This document shows, one piece after another, positions 30 through 39,761 of a stretch of 64,000 nucleotides of DNA. A program made the translations under genes and the position numbers. Position 1 is the first letter of the stretch. Every line of letters starts with the position of its first letter. The notes beneath the pieces are model-generated. The model saw only the letters and a list, made by a program, of their open reading frames with translations. It searched no databases and was not told where the DNA came from. The stretch comes from Krischvirus LF73P4: the sequence record OZ035795.1, one strand, 5' to 3'.

Positions 30-2350
<2,321 letters not shown>

Positions 2351-2381: not shown

Positions 2382-4382
2382 ATGACTCTATTATCACCGG
2401 GTTTCGAAACGAAAGAAACTACTCTCTCCACTACCATTGTGCAATCTGCGACTGGTCGCGCGGCGCTGGTAGGTAAATTTCAATGGGGTCCAGCTTTCCA
2501 GATTGTTCAAGTAACTAATGAAGTTGAATTAGTTAATAAATTTGGTCAGCCGGATAATAACACCGCAGACTATTTCATGAGCGGGGCTAACTTCCTCCAG
2601 TATGGCAATGACCTGCGTGTTGTTCGTGTACTCAATAAAGAAAAAGCAAAAAACGCAACCGCACTGGCTGGTAACGTCGAGTTTGAAATCACAAACGAAG
2701 GTTCAAACTATGAAGTAGGCGATACCATCAAGATTAAACATAACCGTCAAGATATTGAAACGGCTGGTAAAGTAACTAAAGTTGATGGTGATGGTAAAGT
2801 TAAGGGCGTATTTATCCCAACTGGTAAAATTATCGCTCACGCTAAAGCAATCGGTGTATATCCAGAACTTGATGGCGGTTGGACGGCAGAGTTCACTTCT
2901 TCGTCAGGTAACGGTAGTGCGGCGCTGTCAGTAACTAAAATTGTTACTGATTCCGGTCTTCTGTTAACGGATCTGGAAACTTCCCGCGCCAATATCACAA
3001 ATCAAACTTTCTTGACTAAACTCCAGAAGTATGATATGCCAGCGGTAAGCGCGATCTATGCTGGTGAGATTGGCAACTCGCTGGAAGTGGAAATTCTGGC
3101 ACGTAGTGCGTTTAAGAACACTGCACCGGATCTGACCATGTATCCTTATGGTGGCGAGCGCACCGCAGCACGCAACCTGATTCCATATGCACCGCAGAAT
3201 GATAATCAATATGCATTTATTGTTCGTCGCGATGGTGTTGTGGTAGAATCCTATGTACTGTCTACTCTGAAAGGGGATAAAGACGTATACGGCAATTCTA
3301 TCTACATGGACGACTTCTTTGCTCGTGGTTCTAGCCAGTACATCTATGCAACCGCTCAAGGGTGGGTAGATGGTTTCAGTGGTATTATCTCTCTTGCTGG
3401 TGGTGTTTCTGCTAACGAAGCAACGACTGCTGGTGTTGGTGCTGATCCGTTCATCGGTGCGATGATGCAAGGTTGGGATCTGTTTGCTGAACGAGAATCT
3501 ATTCACGTAAACCTGTTGATCGCTGGTGCATGTGCTGGCGAAGGCGATGCGTTCTCTACCGTACAGAAACATGCTGTTTCCATCGGTGATGAGCGTCAGG
3601 ATTGCTTAGTAATGGTTTCTCCGCCGCGTAGCACTGTTGTTAATATTCCGGTGACTACCGCAATTGATAACCTGATTGCATGGCGCGAAGGTTCAGGAAA
3701 CTATAATGAAAACAACATGAACATTAATACCACTTACGCGGTTATTGATGGTAACTACAAATATCAGTATGACAAATACAACGACGTAAACCGTTGGGTT
3801 CCTTTGGCTGCTGATATTGCTGGTTTATGTGCTCGAACTGATGTGGTATCTCAACCGTGGATGAGTCCGGCAGGTTATAACCGTGGTCAGATCATGAACG
3901 TGGTTAAACTGGCAATTGAGCCTCGCAAGTCGCACCGTGATCGTCTGTATCAGGCCGCAATTAACCCGGTGATCGGTGCTGGTGGTGAAGGGTTTATCCT
4001 GATGGGTGATAAAACCGCTACGACTGTTCCTAGCCCGTTTGACCGCATTAACGTTCGTCGTCTGTTTAACATGCTGAAAAAGAATATCGGCGATTCAAGC
4101 AAATACAAACTGTTTGAAAACAACGATAACTTTACTCGCGCTTCCTTCCGTATGGAGGTTTCGCAATATCTCAGCACGATTCGCTCTCTTGGTGGCATTT
4201 ATGACTTCCGAGTACAATGCGACACCACGAACAACACGCCTGATGTAATTGATCGTAATGAATTTGTTGCTAGCATGTTCATCAAACCGGCAAAATCGAT
4301 CAACTATATCATGCTCAATTTCACTGCTGTTGCAACTGGTGCTGATTTTGACGAAATTATCGGTCCAGCTAACCAGGCATAA
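2382..4382 (+). CDS. 18: tail sheath protein
   Basis: 666 aa; follows terminase as in T4; TATAAATA late promoter upstream. Confidence 0.9.
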   Translation: MTLLSPGFETKETTLSTTIVQSATGRAALVGKFQWGPAFQIVQVTNEVELVNKFGQPDNNTADYFMSGANFLQYGNDLRVVRVLNKEKAKNATALAGNVEFEITNEGSNYEVGDTIKIKHNRQDIETAGKVTKVDGDGKVKGVFIPTGKIIAHAKAIGVYPELDGGWTAEFTSSSGNGSAALSVTKIVTDSGLLLTDLETSRANITNQTFLTKLQKYDMPAVSAIYAGEIGNSLEVEILARSAFKNTAPDLTMYPYGGERTAARNLIPYAPQNDNQYAFIVRRDGVVVESYVLSTLKGDKDVYGNSIYMDDFFARGSSQYIYATAQGWVDGFSGIISLAGGVSANEATTAGVGADPFIGAMMQGWDLFAERESIHVNLLIAGACAGEGDAFSTVQKHAVSIGDERQDCLVMVSPPRSTVVNIPVTTAIDNLIAWREGSGNYNENNMNINTTYAVIDGNYKYQYDKYNDVNRWVPLAADIAGLCARTDVVSQPWMSPAGYNRGQIMNVVKLAIEPRKSHRDRLYQAAINPVIGAGGEGFILMGDKTATTVPSPFDRINVRRLFNMLKKNIGDSSKYKLFENNDNFTRASFRMEVSQYLSTIRSLGGIYDFRVQCDTTNNTPDVIDRNEFVASMFIKPAKSINYIMLNFTAVATGADFDEIIGPANQA

Positions 4383-4415
4383 TCAGTAAATTAGCATAGA
4401 TTAAAAGTTAAATCA

Positions 4416-4436
4416 AGCGGGGAGAAAATCCCCGCT
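4416..4436 (+). other. conserved intergenic RNA hairpin (18/19 junction)
   Basis: AGCGGGG-agaaaat-CCCCGCT; no T-run. Confidence 0.5.
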
Positions 4437-4455
4437 CTATTAAGGAATATCAATT

Positions 4456-4950
4456 ATGGCACTCGATTTGAATGATATTACACGCGGTTTCGAGTCTGGC
4501 GATTTTGCTCGTCCTAACCTGTTTGAAGTTGAGATCCCGTATCTGGGGCAAAACTTTAAGCTGATGTGTAAGGCTGCGACCGTCCCGGCTGCTACCGTAG
4601 AAAAAATTGCTATAGGCTATCAAAACCGTAAAATTAACATCGCTGGCGACCGTGTATACGACGACTGGACCATCACTGTATTCAACGATGACGCACACAA
4701 GATCCGTGATGCTATCGTTGCATGGAGCGATCAAACACACGGCACTGGTTCGGCGATCACTGGCGCAACTCCTGCACAGTATAAGAAACAAGCTATTGTT
4801 CGTCAACTTAACCGTAACACCGAATCAACTAGCGAAAAAACATTGTACGGTATTTTCCCGACCAACGTAGGTGAAGTAACCCTCGATTGGGAACAAAACA
4901 ACGAAGTTGAAACGTTTGAAGTTACTTTTGCTATCGATTGGGTAGAATAA
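4456..4950 (+). CDS. 19: tail tube protein
   Basis: 164 aa; T4 gp19 size and position. Confidence 0.88.
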   Translation: MALDLNDITRGFESGDFARPNLFEVEIPYLGQNFKLMCKAATVPAATVEKIAIGYQNRKINIAGDRVYDDWTITVFNDDAHKIRDAIVAWSDQTHGTGSAITGATPAQYKKQAIVRQLNRNTESTSEKTLYGIFPTNVGEVTLDWEQNNEVETFEVTFAIDWVE

Positions 4951-4962
4951 ATATATTATCAT

Positions 4963-4981
4963 GCGGGGAGAAGTTCCCCGC
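4963..4981 (+). other. conserved intergenic RNA hairpin (19/20 junction)
   Basis: GCGGGG-agaagtt-CCCCGC; same stem sequence as at 4416. Confidence 0.5.
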
Positions 4982-5008
4982 CTAATTTCTCCCAATTCGA
5001 GGTGAATA

Positions 5009-6574
5009 ATGTTTAGTAGATTAAAAATGCTTGCGCGTTGGGCTGATTTTGACAACGACAAATACGAAGAACAAATTAAAGATAAAGCAGAGTCTATCGC
5101 CGCACCTAAAAACAATGATGGTGCTACGGAAGTAGAAATTAATGATAATTTACCTGCTAGCGCGTGGAACTCTCTTACCCAGCAATTTTACAGCACCGAC
5201 CAGAAAATCAGCACAACTAAGCAATTAGTTAACACATATCGCGGTTTGATGAATAACCATGAAGTCGAAAACGCTGTACAAAATATCGTTAACGATGCGA
5301 TTGTATTTGAAGAAGGTCATGAAGTTGTTTCATTAAATCTTGAGGCGACTGGTTTTAGTGAATCTGTAAAAGAGCGCATTCATGAAGAATTTAAAGATCT
5401 TTTAAACACTATCCAGTTTGATAAGCGTGGTCAGGATATGTTCCGTCGCTGGTATGTCGATTCGCGTATTTTCTTCCATAAGATCATCGGTAAAAATCCA
5501 AAAGATGGTATCGTAGAATTACGCCAGCTTGATCCACGAAATCTTGAATATGTTCGCGAGATCATTACAGAAGACACCCCGGAAGGTAAAATTTATAAAG
5601 CAACGAAAGAATATTTCATTTACACCGTAGGCAATAGTTCTTATTGCGCGGGCGGTCAAGTATTCTCTCCTAATAGTCGCGTTAAAATCCCGCGTAGTGC
5701 TATTACATACGCTCACAGCGGCTTGATGGATTGCGATGATAAATATATCATTGGTTATTTGCATCGGGCTGTTAAGCCAGCAAACCAGCTTAAATTGTTG
5801 GAAGACGCAATGGTCGTTTATCGTATCACGCGTGCACCGGAACGCCGAGTGTTCTTTATTGATACCGGAAACATGAACAACCGCAAGGCTGCACAGCACA
5901 TGAACTCAGTGGCACAGTCTTTTAAAAACCGCGTTGTTTATGATGCATCGACTGGTAAACTTAAAAACCAGCAAGCAAACCTATCAATGACAGAGGACTA
6001 CTGGTTACAGCGTAGAGATGGTAAAGCAATCACCGATGTTACTACTTTACCGGGTGCATCCGGTATGAGTGATATCGATGATATTCGCTACTTTAACCGT
6101 AAATTATATGAAGCGTTGCGTGTGCCATTGTCACGTAGCAATCTCTCCGATGCTAATATGGTGATCGGTGGTGACGGTTCAGAAATTACTCGCGATGAGT
6201 TGGAATTTTCGAAATTCATTAGAACTCTGCAATCACAGTTTTCGGAAGTATTGCGCGATCCTCTGAAATATAATCTGATTCTCAAAAATGTAATTACGGA
6301 AGACGATTGGGATCGTGAAATAAATAATATCAAGGTGGTTTTCCATCGGGACTCTTACTATACAGAAGTTAAAGACGCGGAAATTTTAGAACGTCGAATC
6401 GGTCTAATCGAACGTATTACACCTTACATTGGTAAATATTTCTCTAACCAGACAGTGATGCGTGACATTCTGAAATATACCGATGACCAGATGGACACCG
6501 AGAAGAAACAGATCGAAGAAGAAGCGAACGATCCGCGCTTTAAACAAACTCCCGATGAAATAGAGGATTTTTAA
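5009..6574 (+). CDS. 20: portal vertex protein
   Basis: 521 aa; long collinear matches to recalled T4 gp20 (e.g. RRWYVDSRIFFHKII, GYLHRAVKPANQLKLLED). Confidence 0.95.
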   Translation: MFSRLKMLARWADFDNDKYEEQIKDKAESIAAPKNNDGATEVEINDNLPASAWNSLTQQFYSTDQKISTTKQLVNTYRGLMNNHEVENAVQNIVNDAIVFEEGHEVVSLNLEATGFSESVKERIHEEFKDLLNTIQFDKRGQDMFRRWYVDSRIFFHKIIGKNPKDGIVELRQLDPRNLEYVREIITEDTPEGKIYKATKEYFIYTVGNSSYCAGGQVFSPNSRVKIPRSAITYAHSGLMDCDDKYIIGYLHRAVKPANQLKLLEDAMVVYRITRAPERRVFFIDTGNMNNRKAAQHMNSVAQSFKNRVVYDASTGKLKNQQANLSMTEDYWLQRRDGKAITDVTTLPGASGMSDIDDIRYFNRKLYEALRVPLSRSNLSDANMVIGGDGSEITRDELEFSKFIRTLQSQFSEVLRDPLKYNLILKNVITEDDWDREINNIKVVFHRDSYYTEVKDAEILERRIGLIERITPYIGKYFSNQTVMRDILKYTDDQMDTEKKQIEEEANDPRFKQTPDEIEDF

Positions 6575-10410: not shown

Positions 10411-10495
10411 TATAAGCCATTCCTGAAAAACTCATGTCGGGTGCAATGCCCGACTTATCATAAACCTTATGACAGTGTAAAGTGTTAATTCCAAA

Positions 10496-10526
10496 GGGAA
10501 GACTCGAAAGGGTCTTCCCTTTTTGC
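10496..10526 (+). terminator. rho-independent terminator after gene 23
   Basis: Hairpin GGGAAGAC-tcgaaag-GTCTTCCC followed by TTTTT. Confidence 0.75.
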
Positions 10527-10540
10527 GTATCATACCCCGT

Positions 10541-10548
10541 TATAAATA
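10541..10548 (+). promoter_or_regulatory. T4-type late promoter TATAAATA
   Basis: Exact match just after the gene 23 terminator; heads a ~265-nt leader. Confidence 0.45.
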
Positions 10549-10813
10549 AGGTTGCAAGCCTATATTCTATTGGGAGCTAAAATAGATACACACAACAAAC
10601 AATTCCACCAATTTTCGTAGTAACTGCATGGCAAAGGACCAATGAATGAAATGAGCGTTCATGCTGATATTGGGTCGGATAGATTTGATAGATATACAAG
10701 ATCTGGTGTATGACGGACCTTGTTATGGCATTCCAGCGTGACGCTAGCGGTATTTTTTGGTTTTGGTACGCTGTTCCCTGAATTAACCCAAAATTCTCCA
10801 TAAGGAGGAATGC

Positions 10814-10966
10814 ATGAGTAAGAAAGAAAACAGCTATGTTATGACTCGTAAGGAATACAACGAATTGATGTTAGCATTAGCTTATGCAATTATTCGTTCT
10901 GATCATGCAATTAATCTGGTAAACAAAGTTAACCGTAGCGTTGATAATGTTTCTAGGAAGAAGTAA
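10814..10966 (+). CDS. small hypothetical protein (50 aa)
   Basis: ATG 8 nt after AAGGAGG; followed by hairpin+T-run terminator; lies where T4 carries segD. Confidence 0.4.
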   Translation: MSKKENSYVMTRKEYNELMLALAYAIIRSDHAINLVNKVNRSVDNVSRKK

Positions 10967-10976
10967 GTTTATTTTT

Positions 10977-11005
10977 GGAATCCTTCGGATTCCTTTTTCT
11001 TTTTG
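10977..11005 (+). terminator. rho-independent terminator
   Basis: GGAATCC-ttc-GGATTCC followed by a T-run. Confidence 0.65.
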
Positions 11006-16727: not shown

Positions 16728-18230
16728 ATGCAAGATATTAAAATTCACTTTCTGAACTATTCCCATGTTCAAATTGAATGTAGCGATTCAATTTTATTAG
16801 AAATGCGAGATTATTTTAGTTTTGAAGTCGAGGGAGCGCGGTTTCAAAAAAGATTTAAGTATGGTGGATGGGATGGGCGTATTCGTCTTTTAGACTACAA
16901 CGGAAAGTTGCCTATCGGCCTAACTAAAACCGTGGGAATCTTCGCTAAAAATATGGGCTATAGCGTATGGGTAGATCCTCGCTTATTCGAAAAAGAACAA
17001 GTTACAGAAGAAGAAATTACAAAATGGTGTAATGACTTAGAATTATATTCCGGTGCTAACAGGATCACCCCGCACTGGTATCAATCAAAGGCTGTCTTTG
17101 AAGGTATCCATCATAAACGCCGTATGTTAGTTTTGCCTACGTCCGCTGGTAAATCTGCGATTGCTTGTATGTTGTCTCGCTGGTACTTAGAGAACTACGA
17201 AGGGAAAGTGCTGATCATCGTTCCTACCACGTCGCTAGTGCTGCAAATGCGTGATGACTTTGTTGATTATCGCCAGTTTCCTTATGAAGCAATTCATACT
17301 ATCATGAGCGGTACTAGTAAACACGTAGGTGATCGCCTGATCGTTGTTAGTACGTGGCAATCAGCATGTAAACAGCCTCGTGAGTGGTTCCAACAATTCG
17401 GGATGGTTATTGTTGACGAATGTCACAAAGCTACTGCTAAAAACCTGCTAAACATCGTTACTGATATGGATCATTGCCAATTTAAGATCGGTATGACTGG
17501 TTCCCCTCGTGACGGGAAAGCTAACATGATGCAGTATGTCGGGCTTTTCGGTGATATTTCTAAGATCGTGAGTATTGACCGCCTGATGGAAGAAGGGCAG
17601 GTGACAAAACTGAAAATTAACTGTCTTTTCCTTCGTTATACCGATGAGGAATGTAGCGCGGTTAAGGGTAGAGAATATGCGGAAGAGATCAAGTATATTA
17701 CGTCTAACCCACGACGAAATAAGTTTGCTTGTAATTTGGCGCTAAAACTCGCTAAGAAGGGCGAAAACGTATTCCTTATGTTCCGCAATACTAAGCACGG
17801 AAAACTTATGTATGACGCGTTACAGAAGGTACACGACAAGGTTTATTATATTGACGGTGGAGTTAAGACAGAAGAACGTGATGAATTTAAGAAAATGGCG
17901 GAGGGTGACACAGGGGTCATTTGTGTTGCGTCTTATGGTGTGTTCTCTACTGGTGTTTCAATTAAGAATTTGCATCATGTTATTTTCGGTCATCCAGTGA
18001 AGGAATCAACTATCGTTCGTCAGAGTATCGGTCGTGCATTGCGTAAACATGGTTCGAAAGACATTGCAACTGTCTGGGATCTTATCGATCATTTGGCGGT
18101 TAAGACAAAGAGCAAGAATGCTAAGAAACAGTTTAGCCACCTTAATTATGCTCTTAAACACGCGCTTTTGAGGATACAGCTTTACAATACCGATAAATTT
18201 GAGTATGTCACGAAAACAATCGAGATTTAA
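16728..18230 (+). CDS. uvsW: UvsW DNA/RNA helicase
   Basis: Collinear with recalled T4 UvsW (DIKIHF.., GWDGRIRLLD, VLPTSAGKS, VDECH); start set at ATG after GAGG rather than the upstream GTG. Confidence 0.93.
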   Translation: MQDIKIHFLNYSHVQIECSDSILLEMRDYFSFEVEGARFQKRFKYGGWDGRIRLLDYNGKLPIGLTKTVGIFAKNMGYSVWVDPRLFEKEQVTEEEITKWCNDLELYSGANRITPHWYQSKAVFEGIHHKRRMLVLPTSAGKSAIACMLSRWYLENYEGKVLIIVPTTSLVLQMRDDFVDYRQFPYEAIHTIMSGTSKHVGDRLIVVSTWQSACKQPREWFQQFGMVIVDECHKATAKNLLNIVTDMDHCQFKIGMTGSPRDGKANMMQYVGLFGDISKIVSIDRLMEEGQVTKLKINCLFLRYTDEECSAVKGREYAEEIKYITSNPRRNKFACNLALKLAKKGENVFLMFRNTKHGKLMYDALQKVHDKVYYIDGGVKTEERDEFKKMAEGDTGVICVASYGVFSTGVSIKNLHHVIFGHPVKESTIVRQSIGRALRKHGSKDIATVWDLIDHLAVKTKSKNAKKQFSHLNYALKHALLRIQLYNTDKFEYVTKTIEI

Positions 18231-18235
18231 TAAAT

Positions 18236-18259
18236 AGGGGCTTTAATGCCCCTTTATTC
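18236..18259 (+). terminator. possible terminator after uvsW
   Basis: AGGGGC-tttaat-GCCCCT then TTTATT. Confidence 0.45.
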
Positions 18260-26417: not shown

Positions 26418-26426
26418 TAAGCGAAA

Positions 26427-26456
26427 GGCGGGGATTGTCCCCCGCCTTTTTATTTT
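26427..26456 (+). terminator. rho-independent terminator after gene 54
   Basis: GGCGGGG-attgt-CCCCCGCC followed by TTTTT. Confidence 0.7.
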
Positions 26457-30417: not shown

Positions 30418-30486
30418 GTTTGATTCCCCTTTCGTTTCGGTATGTGTGTATTATAGGGGATCACCGATCCCCCTGTCAACAACTTT
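30418..30486 (-). promoter_or_regulatory. PeSL-type early promoter/stem-loop cassette
   Basis: TTGACA, spacer palindrome GGGGGATCGGTGATCCCC, TATAAT. Confidence 0.6.
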
Positions 30487-32542: not shown

Positions 32543-32625
32543 TGTTTGATTCTCCTAAGTGGTATCTCGTCTTGATGGTTGTATTGTAGGGGAGTTATCC
32601 TCCCCTGTCAACACTTTTTATAAAA
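32543..32625 (-). promoter_or_regulatory. PeSL-type early promoter/stem-loop cassette
   Basis: TTGACA, spacer palindrome GGGGAGGATAACTCCCC, TACAAT; heads the DUF262/methyltransferase-like operon. Confidence 0.6.
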
Positions 32626-32793: not shown

Positions 32794-32869
32794 TTTGATT
32801 CTCCTATTTCGTTTCGGTATGTGTGTATTATAGGGGATCTCCCGATCCCCGTCAACAACTTTTTTAAAA
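32794..32869 (-). promoter_or_regulatory. PeSL-type early promoter/stem-loop cassette
   Basis: TTGACG, spacer palindrome GGGGATC..GATCCCC, TATAAT. Confidence 0.55.
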
Positions 32870-36063: not shown

Positions 36064-36133
36064 TTTTGATTCTCCTATATCTCGTTGGTATGTGTGTAGT
36101 ATAGGGGATCGGTGATCCCCTGTCAACAACTTT
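36064..36133 (-). promoter_or_regulatory. PeSL-type early promoter/stem-loop cassette
   Basis: TTGACA, spacer palindrome GGGGATCACCGATCCCC, TATACT. Confidence 0.6.
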
Positions 36134-37608: not shown

Positions 37609-37688
37609 TTTTGATTCTCCTTAAGAAAGTGTGTTTCGTTTTGATGTGTGTAGTATAGGGGATCACCGATCCCCTGTCAACAACTTTT
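37609..37688 (-). promoter_or_regulatory. PeSL-type early promoter/stem-loop cassette
   Basis: TTGACA, spacer palindrome GGGGATCGGTGATCCCC, TATACT. Confidence 0.6.
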
Positions 37689-39700: not shown

Positions 39701-39761
39701 ATTTGATTCTCCTTAGTTGGTATGGTTATCATTATACGGGGATTTCTCCCCGTGTCAACAA
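39701..39761 (-). promoter_or_regulatory. PeSL-type early promoter/stem-loop cassette
   Basis: TTGACA, spacer palindrome GGGGAGAAATCCCC, TATAAT. Confidence 0.55.

Follow-up and report, generated by a model that had tools for sequence, protein, structure and literature searches.

REP hairpins of Escherichia coli malEFG are intercistronic mRNA stabilizers that belong to host chromosomal repeats with a consensus of their own. Newbury et al. reportedly found in 1987 that the REP sequences in malE-malF, which are intercistronic and have no U-tract, stabilize upstream mRNA segments. Stable tetraloops of the GNRA and UNCG types were first noticed in the mRNA of bacteriophage T4, where the C(UUCG)G hairpins originally described by Tuerk and colleagues (1988) exemplify the class of intercistronic tetraloop hairpins (PMC4371310). 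A further type of stem-loop was described in phages RB49 and phi1, in which an early promoter plus a stem-loop constitutes a PeSL, and the stem-loops are “generally GGGG...CCCC” (Arbiol et al., 2010, PMC2839356). Two hairpins in the late genes of an RB49-group phage, which invite comparison with each of these systems, are the subject of this analysis.

The window, a stretch of 64,000 nucleotides of Krischvirus LF73P4 DNA (OZ035795.1), comes from an RB49-like Krischvirus, and adding 84,460 to a window coordinate gives the coordinate in RB49 (NC_005066). The region is 95–99% identical to annotated Krischvirus genomes (RB49, phi1, JSE, ECD7), which bear out the identification of three consecutive ORFs in the preliminary description as tail sheath, tail tube and portal genes. 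Genes 18 and 19 are separated by 73 nt and genes 19 and 20 by 58 nt, and each of these gaps contains one hairpin, designated H1 and H2, respectively (Table 1).

Table 1. Coordinates of the hairpins, genes and promoter sequences discussed in the text, numbered from the first nucleotide of the window.
Feature	Position	Strand	Description
H1, 18/19 gap	4416-4436	+	AGCGGGGA-GAAAA-TCCCCGCT; 8 bp stem, 5-nt loop
H2, 19/20 gap	4963-4981	+	GCGGGGA-GAAGT-TCCCCGC; 7 bp stem, 5-nt loop
Gene 18, tail sheath	2382-4382	+	Identified from ORF and annotated Krischvirus relatives
Gene 19, tail tube	4456-4950	+	Shine-Dalgarno AAGGA at 4442-4446, free of H1
Gene 20, portal	5009-6574	+	Shine-Dalgarno GAGGTG at 4999-5004, free of H2
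Canonical late promoter TATAAATA	2343-2350	+	Upstream of gene 18; equals RB49 late promoter 86777-86819
Possible variant late promoter AATAAATA	4946-4953	+	Overlaps gene 19 stop codon
Third CGGGGA...TCCCCG hairpin	39737-39752	-	Sense loop GAAA; constitutes the 16-nt spacer between consensus TTGACA and TATAAT

The two hairpins were initially recognized by the arms GCGGGG and CCCCGC, 7 nt apart, as GCGGGGAGAAAATCCCCGC at 4417–4435 and GCGGGGAGAAGTTCCCCGC at 4963–4981. This pattern is borne out in both gaps and is rare by chance: GCGGGG-N7-CCCCGC has two matches in the 64 kb, a number unchanged when one mismatch is allowed, while dinucleotide shuffles gave a mean of 0.03 matches and none of 100 shuffles reached two. 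Each loop is in fact 5 nt long and closed by an A-U pair, which brings the stems to 8 bp in H1 and 7 bp in H2. The predicted energies of the hairpins are −15.2 (H1) and −12.9 kcal/mol (H2), and folding of the entire gaps gave z = −3.2 for 18/19 and −1.9 for 19/20. H1 begins 33 nt after the stop codon of gene 18, and H2 12 nt after that of gene 19. Among nine Krischvirus sequences, the stems are invariant and the loops vary, being GAAAA, GAAGT or GAAA in H1 (the last in the sister phage G2248) and GAAGT or TTAT in H2 (the latter in phage JK32), and H1 and H2 are identical at 19 of 19 positions in some relatives. An Rfam scan of 4200–5200 at a permissive threshold returned two chance-level matches (E = 0.29 and 4.8), far under the gathering scores.

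H1 and H2 are the Krischvirus versions of stem-loops that follow genes 18 and 19 in almost all T4-like phages. Conservation in relatives had been put forward in the preliminary description as a check on the element, and both positions are indeed kept: T4 itself has hairpins after both genes, and 12 of 13 other Straboviridae genera sampled carry a G+C-rich hairpin after both stop codons, the exception being Bp7, which has inserted genes at both junctions. What persists among genera is the position of the hairpin and its pairing, as the stem sequences at both junctions are unrelated. In a broader sample of 80 T4-like loci from IMG/VR, found by gp19 alignment, a hairpin of −9 kcal/mol or better is present at 67 loci in the 18/19 gap and at 72 in the 19/20 gap, with 51 and 43 distinct sequences, respectively. 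Because the family hairpins have diverged so far that an alignment would require the structure to be imposed, alignment-free shuffle tests were used to assess them; 53 of 60 unique 18/19 gaps and 42 of 48 unique 19/20 gaps fold more favorably than 95% or more of their dinucleotide shuffles. At the 80 loci, the hairpin follows the stop codon at a median distance of approximately 6 nt.

The G-rich 5′ arm of a perfect hairpin gives no information on the strand that is used, since its arms read alike on both strands, and for this reason the identity of the loop served as the strand test. Of 54 tetraloops at the IMG/VR loci, 41 are of the GNRA or UNCG type when read on the sense strand and only one when read antisense, a bias which implies that the element acts as RNA, on the late mRNA. 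The loops within the window, GAAAA in H1 and GAAGU in H2, count against this family reading in that they have 5 nt and are not stable tetraloops, as does the distance of H1 from the stop codon, which exceeds the family median. Taken with the positional conservation, the comparison supports the view that H1 and H2 are selected RNA-level elements, not chance palindromes.

The preliminary description had regarded the stem sequence common to both junctions as the sign of a deliberate RNA element. Positional conservation and the sense-strand tetraloops speak for such an element, while the shared stem loses its value as a mark of it in light of the other genera and the generic nature of the motif. 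In most other genera, the equivalents of H1 and H2 differ from each other. The core GGGGA-GAAA-UCCCC is also that of the T4 hairpin after gene 19, and within the window, GGGGA-N3-7-TCCCC hairpins occur nine times against 0.04 expected. One further hairpin of similar sequence, on the minus strand (Table 1), sits inside an early promoter as part of a PeSL-type cassette. An IMG/VR motif scan found CGGGGAGAANNTCCCCG in at least 120 unrelated viral contigs, with two copies only in the Krischvirus contig; CGGGGAGAANNTCCCCG is a generic sequence, and the possibility that it is a mobile element was rejected. The identical stems of H1 and H2 most likely reflect a genome-wide preference for GGGGA...UCCCC together with lineage-specific local homogenization, and not a dedicated recognition sequence.

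These observations bear directly on the proposal that the shared sequence is bound specifically by an RNA-binding protein or nuclease of the phage or the host, such as RNase III or RegB (the latter acting at GGAG), which would place the three genes under joint control. The stem is identical at both junctions and invariant within the genus, and GGAG is found at the stem/loop junction, as this proposal would predict; unrelated stems at the same positions in other genera, loops that vary freely within the genus, and the occurrence of the motif in so many unrelated contigs are contrary to it. RNase III acts on roughly two helical turns, or ~20 bp, of double-stranded RNA. By this general requirement, stems of 7–8 bp are too short, and the processing site suggested in the preliminary description is unlikely to be one for RNase III. 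Late transcripts are reported to be RegB-resistant, and RNA structure protects against RegB (PMC3014915). A specific binding site is accordingly so improbable that it may nearly be discounted.

Other stem-loops of related sequence were observed elsewhere in the window. Between two convergent genes, at 26424–26449, a 10-bp hairpin with the GCGGGG/CCCCGC core, AAAGGCGGGG-ATTGTC-CCCCGCCTTT, precedes a T-rich tail; its counterpart in RB49 is the predicted bidirectional terminator “54-><-ORF182c.” PeSL-type cassettes are located at 39701–39761 (minus strand) and also at 32543–32625, 52352–52395, 30456–30472, 32833–32850, 36103–36121 and 37657–37675.

The nearest canonical late promoter precedes gene 18, and the next entry after its RB49 counterpart in the published RB49 late-promoter list is at 92358 (Nolan et al., 2006, PMC1524935). 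Both that list and a scan of the window revealed no TATAAATA between 2343 and 7930, including the two hairpin gaps, and genes 18-19-20-67-68-21 are therefore taken to constitute one late transcription unit that contains H1 and H2. The sequence TATTAAGG after H1 was considered as a late promoter and rejected, as it matches TATAAATA at only five of eight positions. A late promoter adjoining the hairpin is a common feature of the family, although not a universal one: among the 51 unique hairpins of the 18/19 gap, 23 have TAAATA at a distance of 0–3 nt from the 3′ arm. The window has no TATAAATA adjacent to either hairpin, and only AATAAATA is present, upstream of H2.

Promoters and hairpins are arranged in other ways elsewhere in the family. 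In T4 (NC_000866; locus L227, 4517–4632), the 18/19 gap holds two tandem hairpin-TATAAATA units, and tandem units of this kind are also found in the 18/19 gap of Mosigvirus, Karamvirus, Moonvirus and Jiaodavirus loci. This tandem arrangement suggests duplication of a hairpin-plus-late-promoter cassette in the T-even phages. At seven loci of an Acinetobacter-phage group, TATAAATA lies in the 19/20 gap within the loop of a 13–15 bp hairpin, where read-through RNA could form the hairpin and RNA started at the loop TATAAATA would carry only its 3′ arm.

5′-terminal hairpins shield mRNA from RNase E. If AATAAATA at the gene 19 stop codon is active as a promoter, a transcript would possibly start ~6 nt downstream, near 4959, placing H2 4 nt from its 5′ end, and H2 could then serve chiefly as the 5′-terminal stabilizing stem-loop of a separate gene 20 transcript. 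In RB49-type late promoters, either A or T is accepted at position −13, and the equivalent site of phage 44RR is among the predicted late promoters, whereas the AATAAATA site itself is absent from the published RB49 list (Nolan et al., 2006, PMC1524935). The layout recurs at 18229–18253, where a second AATAAATA over a stop codon is followed directly by the hairpin AGGGGC-TTTAAT-GCCCCT. A role of this kind would leave H1 unexplained, as no promoter-like sequence is found upstream of it, and the spacing differs in relatives: promoter and hairpin are so close together in Slopekvirus and Pseudotevenvirus that transcription would start within the stem, and in T4 the promoter lies downstream of the hairpin. 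A 5′-stabilizing function as the main role of H2 is therefore considered unlikely.

H1 and H2 are already known as sequence features, having been annotated as putative terminators in sister genomes. Both carry the label of putative transcriptional terminator in GenBank entry MK327932 (phage vB_EcoM_G2248), and MN894885 lists H1 as a minus-strand terminator. The RB49 TransTerm terminator “19-->20,” at 89423–89441 with a score of 100, is exactly H2, and H1 is missing from the same list (Nolan et al., 2006, PMC1524935, file S6). Searches of the accessible literature turned up no transcript data for this phage, and no 3′-end or stability data for genes 18–20 of T4 or RB49.

As stems, both hairpins resemble intrinsic terminators, being G+C-rich with a loop of 3–8 nt, and the difference lies in what follows. 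The sequences 3′ of the stems, TCTATTAAGG and CTAATTTCTC, are not U-rich, and TransTermHP-style tail scores of −3.08/−2.42 for H1 and −2.41 for H2 are equaled by 10–32% of random 15-mers from the window, as compared with a score of −5.71 for the canonical terminator before gene 24. In a lenient terminator scan, H2 passed on the plus strand at the limit, with 5 T in 8 nt, and H1 was listed only on the minus strand. By tail score and scan, neither hairpin has the U-tract of an intrinsic terminator, and the statement in the preliminary description that no T-run follows was essentially right. The same is true of the family, in which the 8 nt 3′ of the stem mostly hold 2–3 T at the 80 IMG/VR loci and U-tracts are the exception.

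A terminating ribosome would cover the 5′ arm of a hairpin located ~6 nt after the stop codon. This masking, which would be expected at the typical family hairpin, together with tails no more U-rich than random sequence, argues against the rival reading that H1 and H2 are true but leaky intrinsic terminators, or attenuators, at which a fixed fraction of transcripts stops and transcription steps down from gene 18 to 19 to 20. Furthermore, H1 cannot terminate efficiently, and could be an inefficient terminator at most, because gp18 and gp19 are needed equally and their genes are not separated by a canonical promoter. T4 terminators have been described with a poly(U) tract (PMC2988022), a further point against this reading. 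In its favor, a weak T4 terminator in mobE halts ~30% of transcripts (PMC2988022). Leaky termination also draws on the TransTerm score of H2 and its passage in the lenient scan, on the labels in MK327932, and on the suitability of a step down after gene 19 to the low copy number of the portal. Moreover, one RB49 GGGG...CCCC stem-loop was equal to rrnB T1 in its reduction of lacZ read-through (Arbiol et al., 2010, PMC2839356), a result that makes partial termination at H1 and H2 a serious rival, possible although not probable. For many hairpins of the family, “terminator” is probably the wrong label, in view of the missing U-tract, the position ~6 nt past the stop codon and the sense-strand tetraloops.

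Because neither hairpin has a U-tract, the reading favored here, with somewhat more confidence than doubt, is that H1 and H2 mainly act as barriers to 3′ exonucleases, with at most weak partial termination, and would thereby favor sheath and tube over portal mRNA. Both would function as RNA on the sense late transcript begun at the promoter before gene 18. Read-through would be followed by endonucleolytic cuts in the A/U-rich flanks, and the hairpins would then block 3′-to-5′ exonucleases, so that the upstream segments, consisting of gene 18 or genes 18-19 and ending in a protective hairpin, outlast the gene 20 segment and high-copy tail proteins are favored over the low-copy portal. Such a mechanism would need efficient read-through of H1, which is consistent with the equimolar demand for gp18 and gp19.

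In the late cluster of the window, strong hairpins are found after genes 18, 19 and 23 and after the small ORF that precedes gene 24, and none after genes 20, 67, 68, 21 and 22, a distribution in keeping with an association with high-copy products. An effect on transcript ratios, as the preliminary description had envisaged, is a reasonable proposal; a role in transcript 3′-end formation or stability that skewed the ratio of genes 18/19 to gene 20 would fit the absence of a canonical late promoter between genes 18 and 21. Against a pure decay barrier, the hairpins that stand next to a late promoter in 23 of 51 cases may be better explained as terminator-plus-promoter modules. After gene 23 (10411–11002), hairpins are located at 10436–10454, 10493–10522 (−20 kcal/mol) and 10977–10993, and a genuine T-run accompanies the last of these. 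When the terminator positions published for RB49 are mapped onto the window, the stretch from gene 23 to gene 24 comes out ~94 nt shorter than in RB49.

An altogether different possibility is that the hairpins act at the level of DNA, as recombination modules or leftovers of hairpin-plus-promoter units, in which case the pair that flanks gene 19 would be the scar of a cassette exchange or a substrate for one, without any current function in RNA. The two hairpins do constitute direct repeats around gene 19, with full 19/19 identity in some relatives, and PeSL cassettes of RB49 with the same type of stem recombine and form mini-circles (Arbiol et al., 2010, PMC2839356). Exchange of a gene 19 cassette was checked through protein identities across the junctions (2382–6574 compared with loci L009–L021): gp19 has its nearest relatives in Slopekvirus and Pseudotevenvirus, at 73–75% identity, and the adjoining C-terminus of gp18 and N-terminus of gp20 have theirs in Karamvirus, Jiaodavirus, Moonvirus and Acj9. 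This discordance is a modest, ambiguous signal that may reflect either mosaicism at the hairpins or no more than unequal rates of evolution.

Homing-endonuclease-like genes have been inserted beside these hairpins in phiS and Bp7, and gaps marked by these hairpins seem to be targets for the insertion of such genes. In phiS (L144, PP449093, 164–858), an inserted 199-aa HNH-like ORF separates H1 from the stop codon of gene 18 and brings an extra hairpin, GGGGGAG-GTCAA-CTCCCCC, directly after gene 18; in Bp7 (L012, 1260–1841), an HNH endonuclease gene is positioned directly 3′ of gene 19. The insertions and the nearest relatives of gp19 are points in favor of a DNA-level function, which is nevertheless judged highly improbable, as the family-wide sense-strand tetraloop bias indicates selection on RNA, the position after the stop codon is kept even without a repeat pair, and the discordance of gp19 may be a rate effect.

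These insertions, the relatives of gp19 and the tandem T-even units are also consistent with a broader conjecture, in which hairpin-plus-late-promoter units would be the late counterpart of PeSLs, recombination-prone and punctuating the structural genes of all T4-like phages. The RB49-group pair would then have lost its promoters and been homogenized by gene conversion, and the remaining direct repeats of 19–21 bp, nearly identical to each other, might allow gene 19 to be exchanged or excised as a cassette. This evolutionary scenario is regarded as decidedly unlikely.

Comparison with the described systems places the exonuclease-barrier reading of H1 and H2 in context. PeSLs share with them both lineage, being found in RB49 and phi1, and the GGGG...CCCC stem, and the PeSL at 39737–39752 in the window has nearly the same hairpin. 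However, PeSLs possess a strong sigma-70-type promoter and are found among early non-essential or orphan genes in hyperplastic regions, whereas H1 and H2 are part of a conserved late structural module. The possibility that H1 and H2 are themselves PeSL cassettes was rejected on grounds of location and because no strong sigma-70-type −35/−10 promoter accompanies them: near H2, a sigma-70 scan found only a 9/12 match in which the spacer is 18 nt long, and near H1 it found no match; matches of this kind are about as frequent as chance predicts (27 observed, 25.8 expected). Intrinsic terminators, including the weak T4 mobE example (PMC2988022), resemble H1 and H2 in the G+C-rich stem, short loop and position after a gene but differ in having a U-tract, which H1 and H2 lack or possess only marginally.

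In the proposed mode of action, REP hairpins provide a close parallel. They are like H1 and H2 in having no U-tract, in lying within one transcript upstream of a gene in lower demand, and in the action proposed for them, although the sequences are unrelated and the stabilizing action of the phage hairpins is putative.

The T4 hairpins after genes 18 and 19 agree with H1 and H2 in the junctions that they occupy, in their placement after the stop codon and in their short, G+C-rich stem. In T4 (NC_000866), the two hairpins are at about 100,535–100,552 and 101,132–101,149. The core GGGGAGAAAUCCCC is common to the hairpin after gene 19 of T4, AUGGGGA-GAAA-UCCCCAU, and to those of the RB49 group, and in phage G2248 of the RB49 group, H1 is GCGGGGA-GAAA-TCCCCGC, with the same GAAA loop as in T4. 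A canonical late promoter follows each of the T4 hairpins, which differ in sequence from one another, whereas those in the window have no such promoters, 5-nt loops and identical stems. The RB49 group thus offers a natural case in which effects on transcript ratios are measurable free of new initiation at adjoining late promoters. H1 and H2 belong to the class of intercistronic stem-loops recognized in T4 since the 1980s, and this membership is of little import beyond annotation. They are genuine RNA elements under selection, of a type long familiar, for which an influence on the ratio of sheath, tube and portal transcripts is a reasonable proposal.
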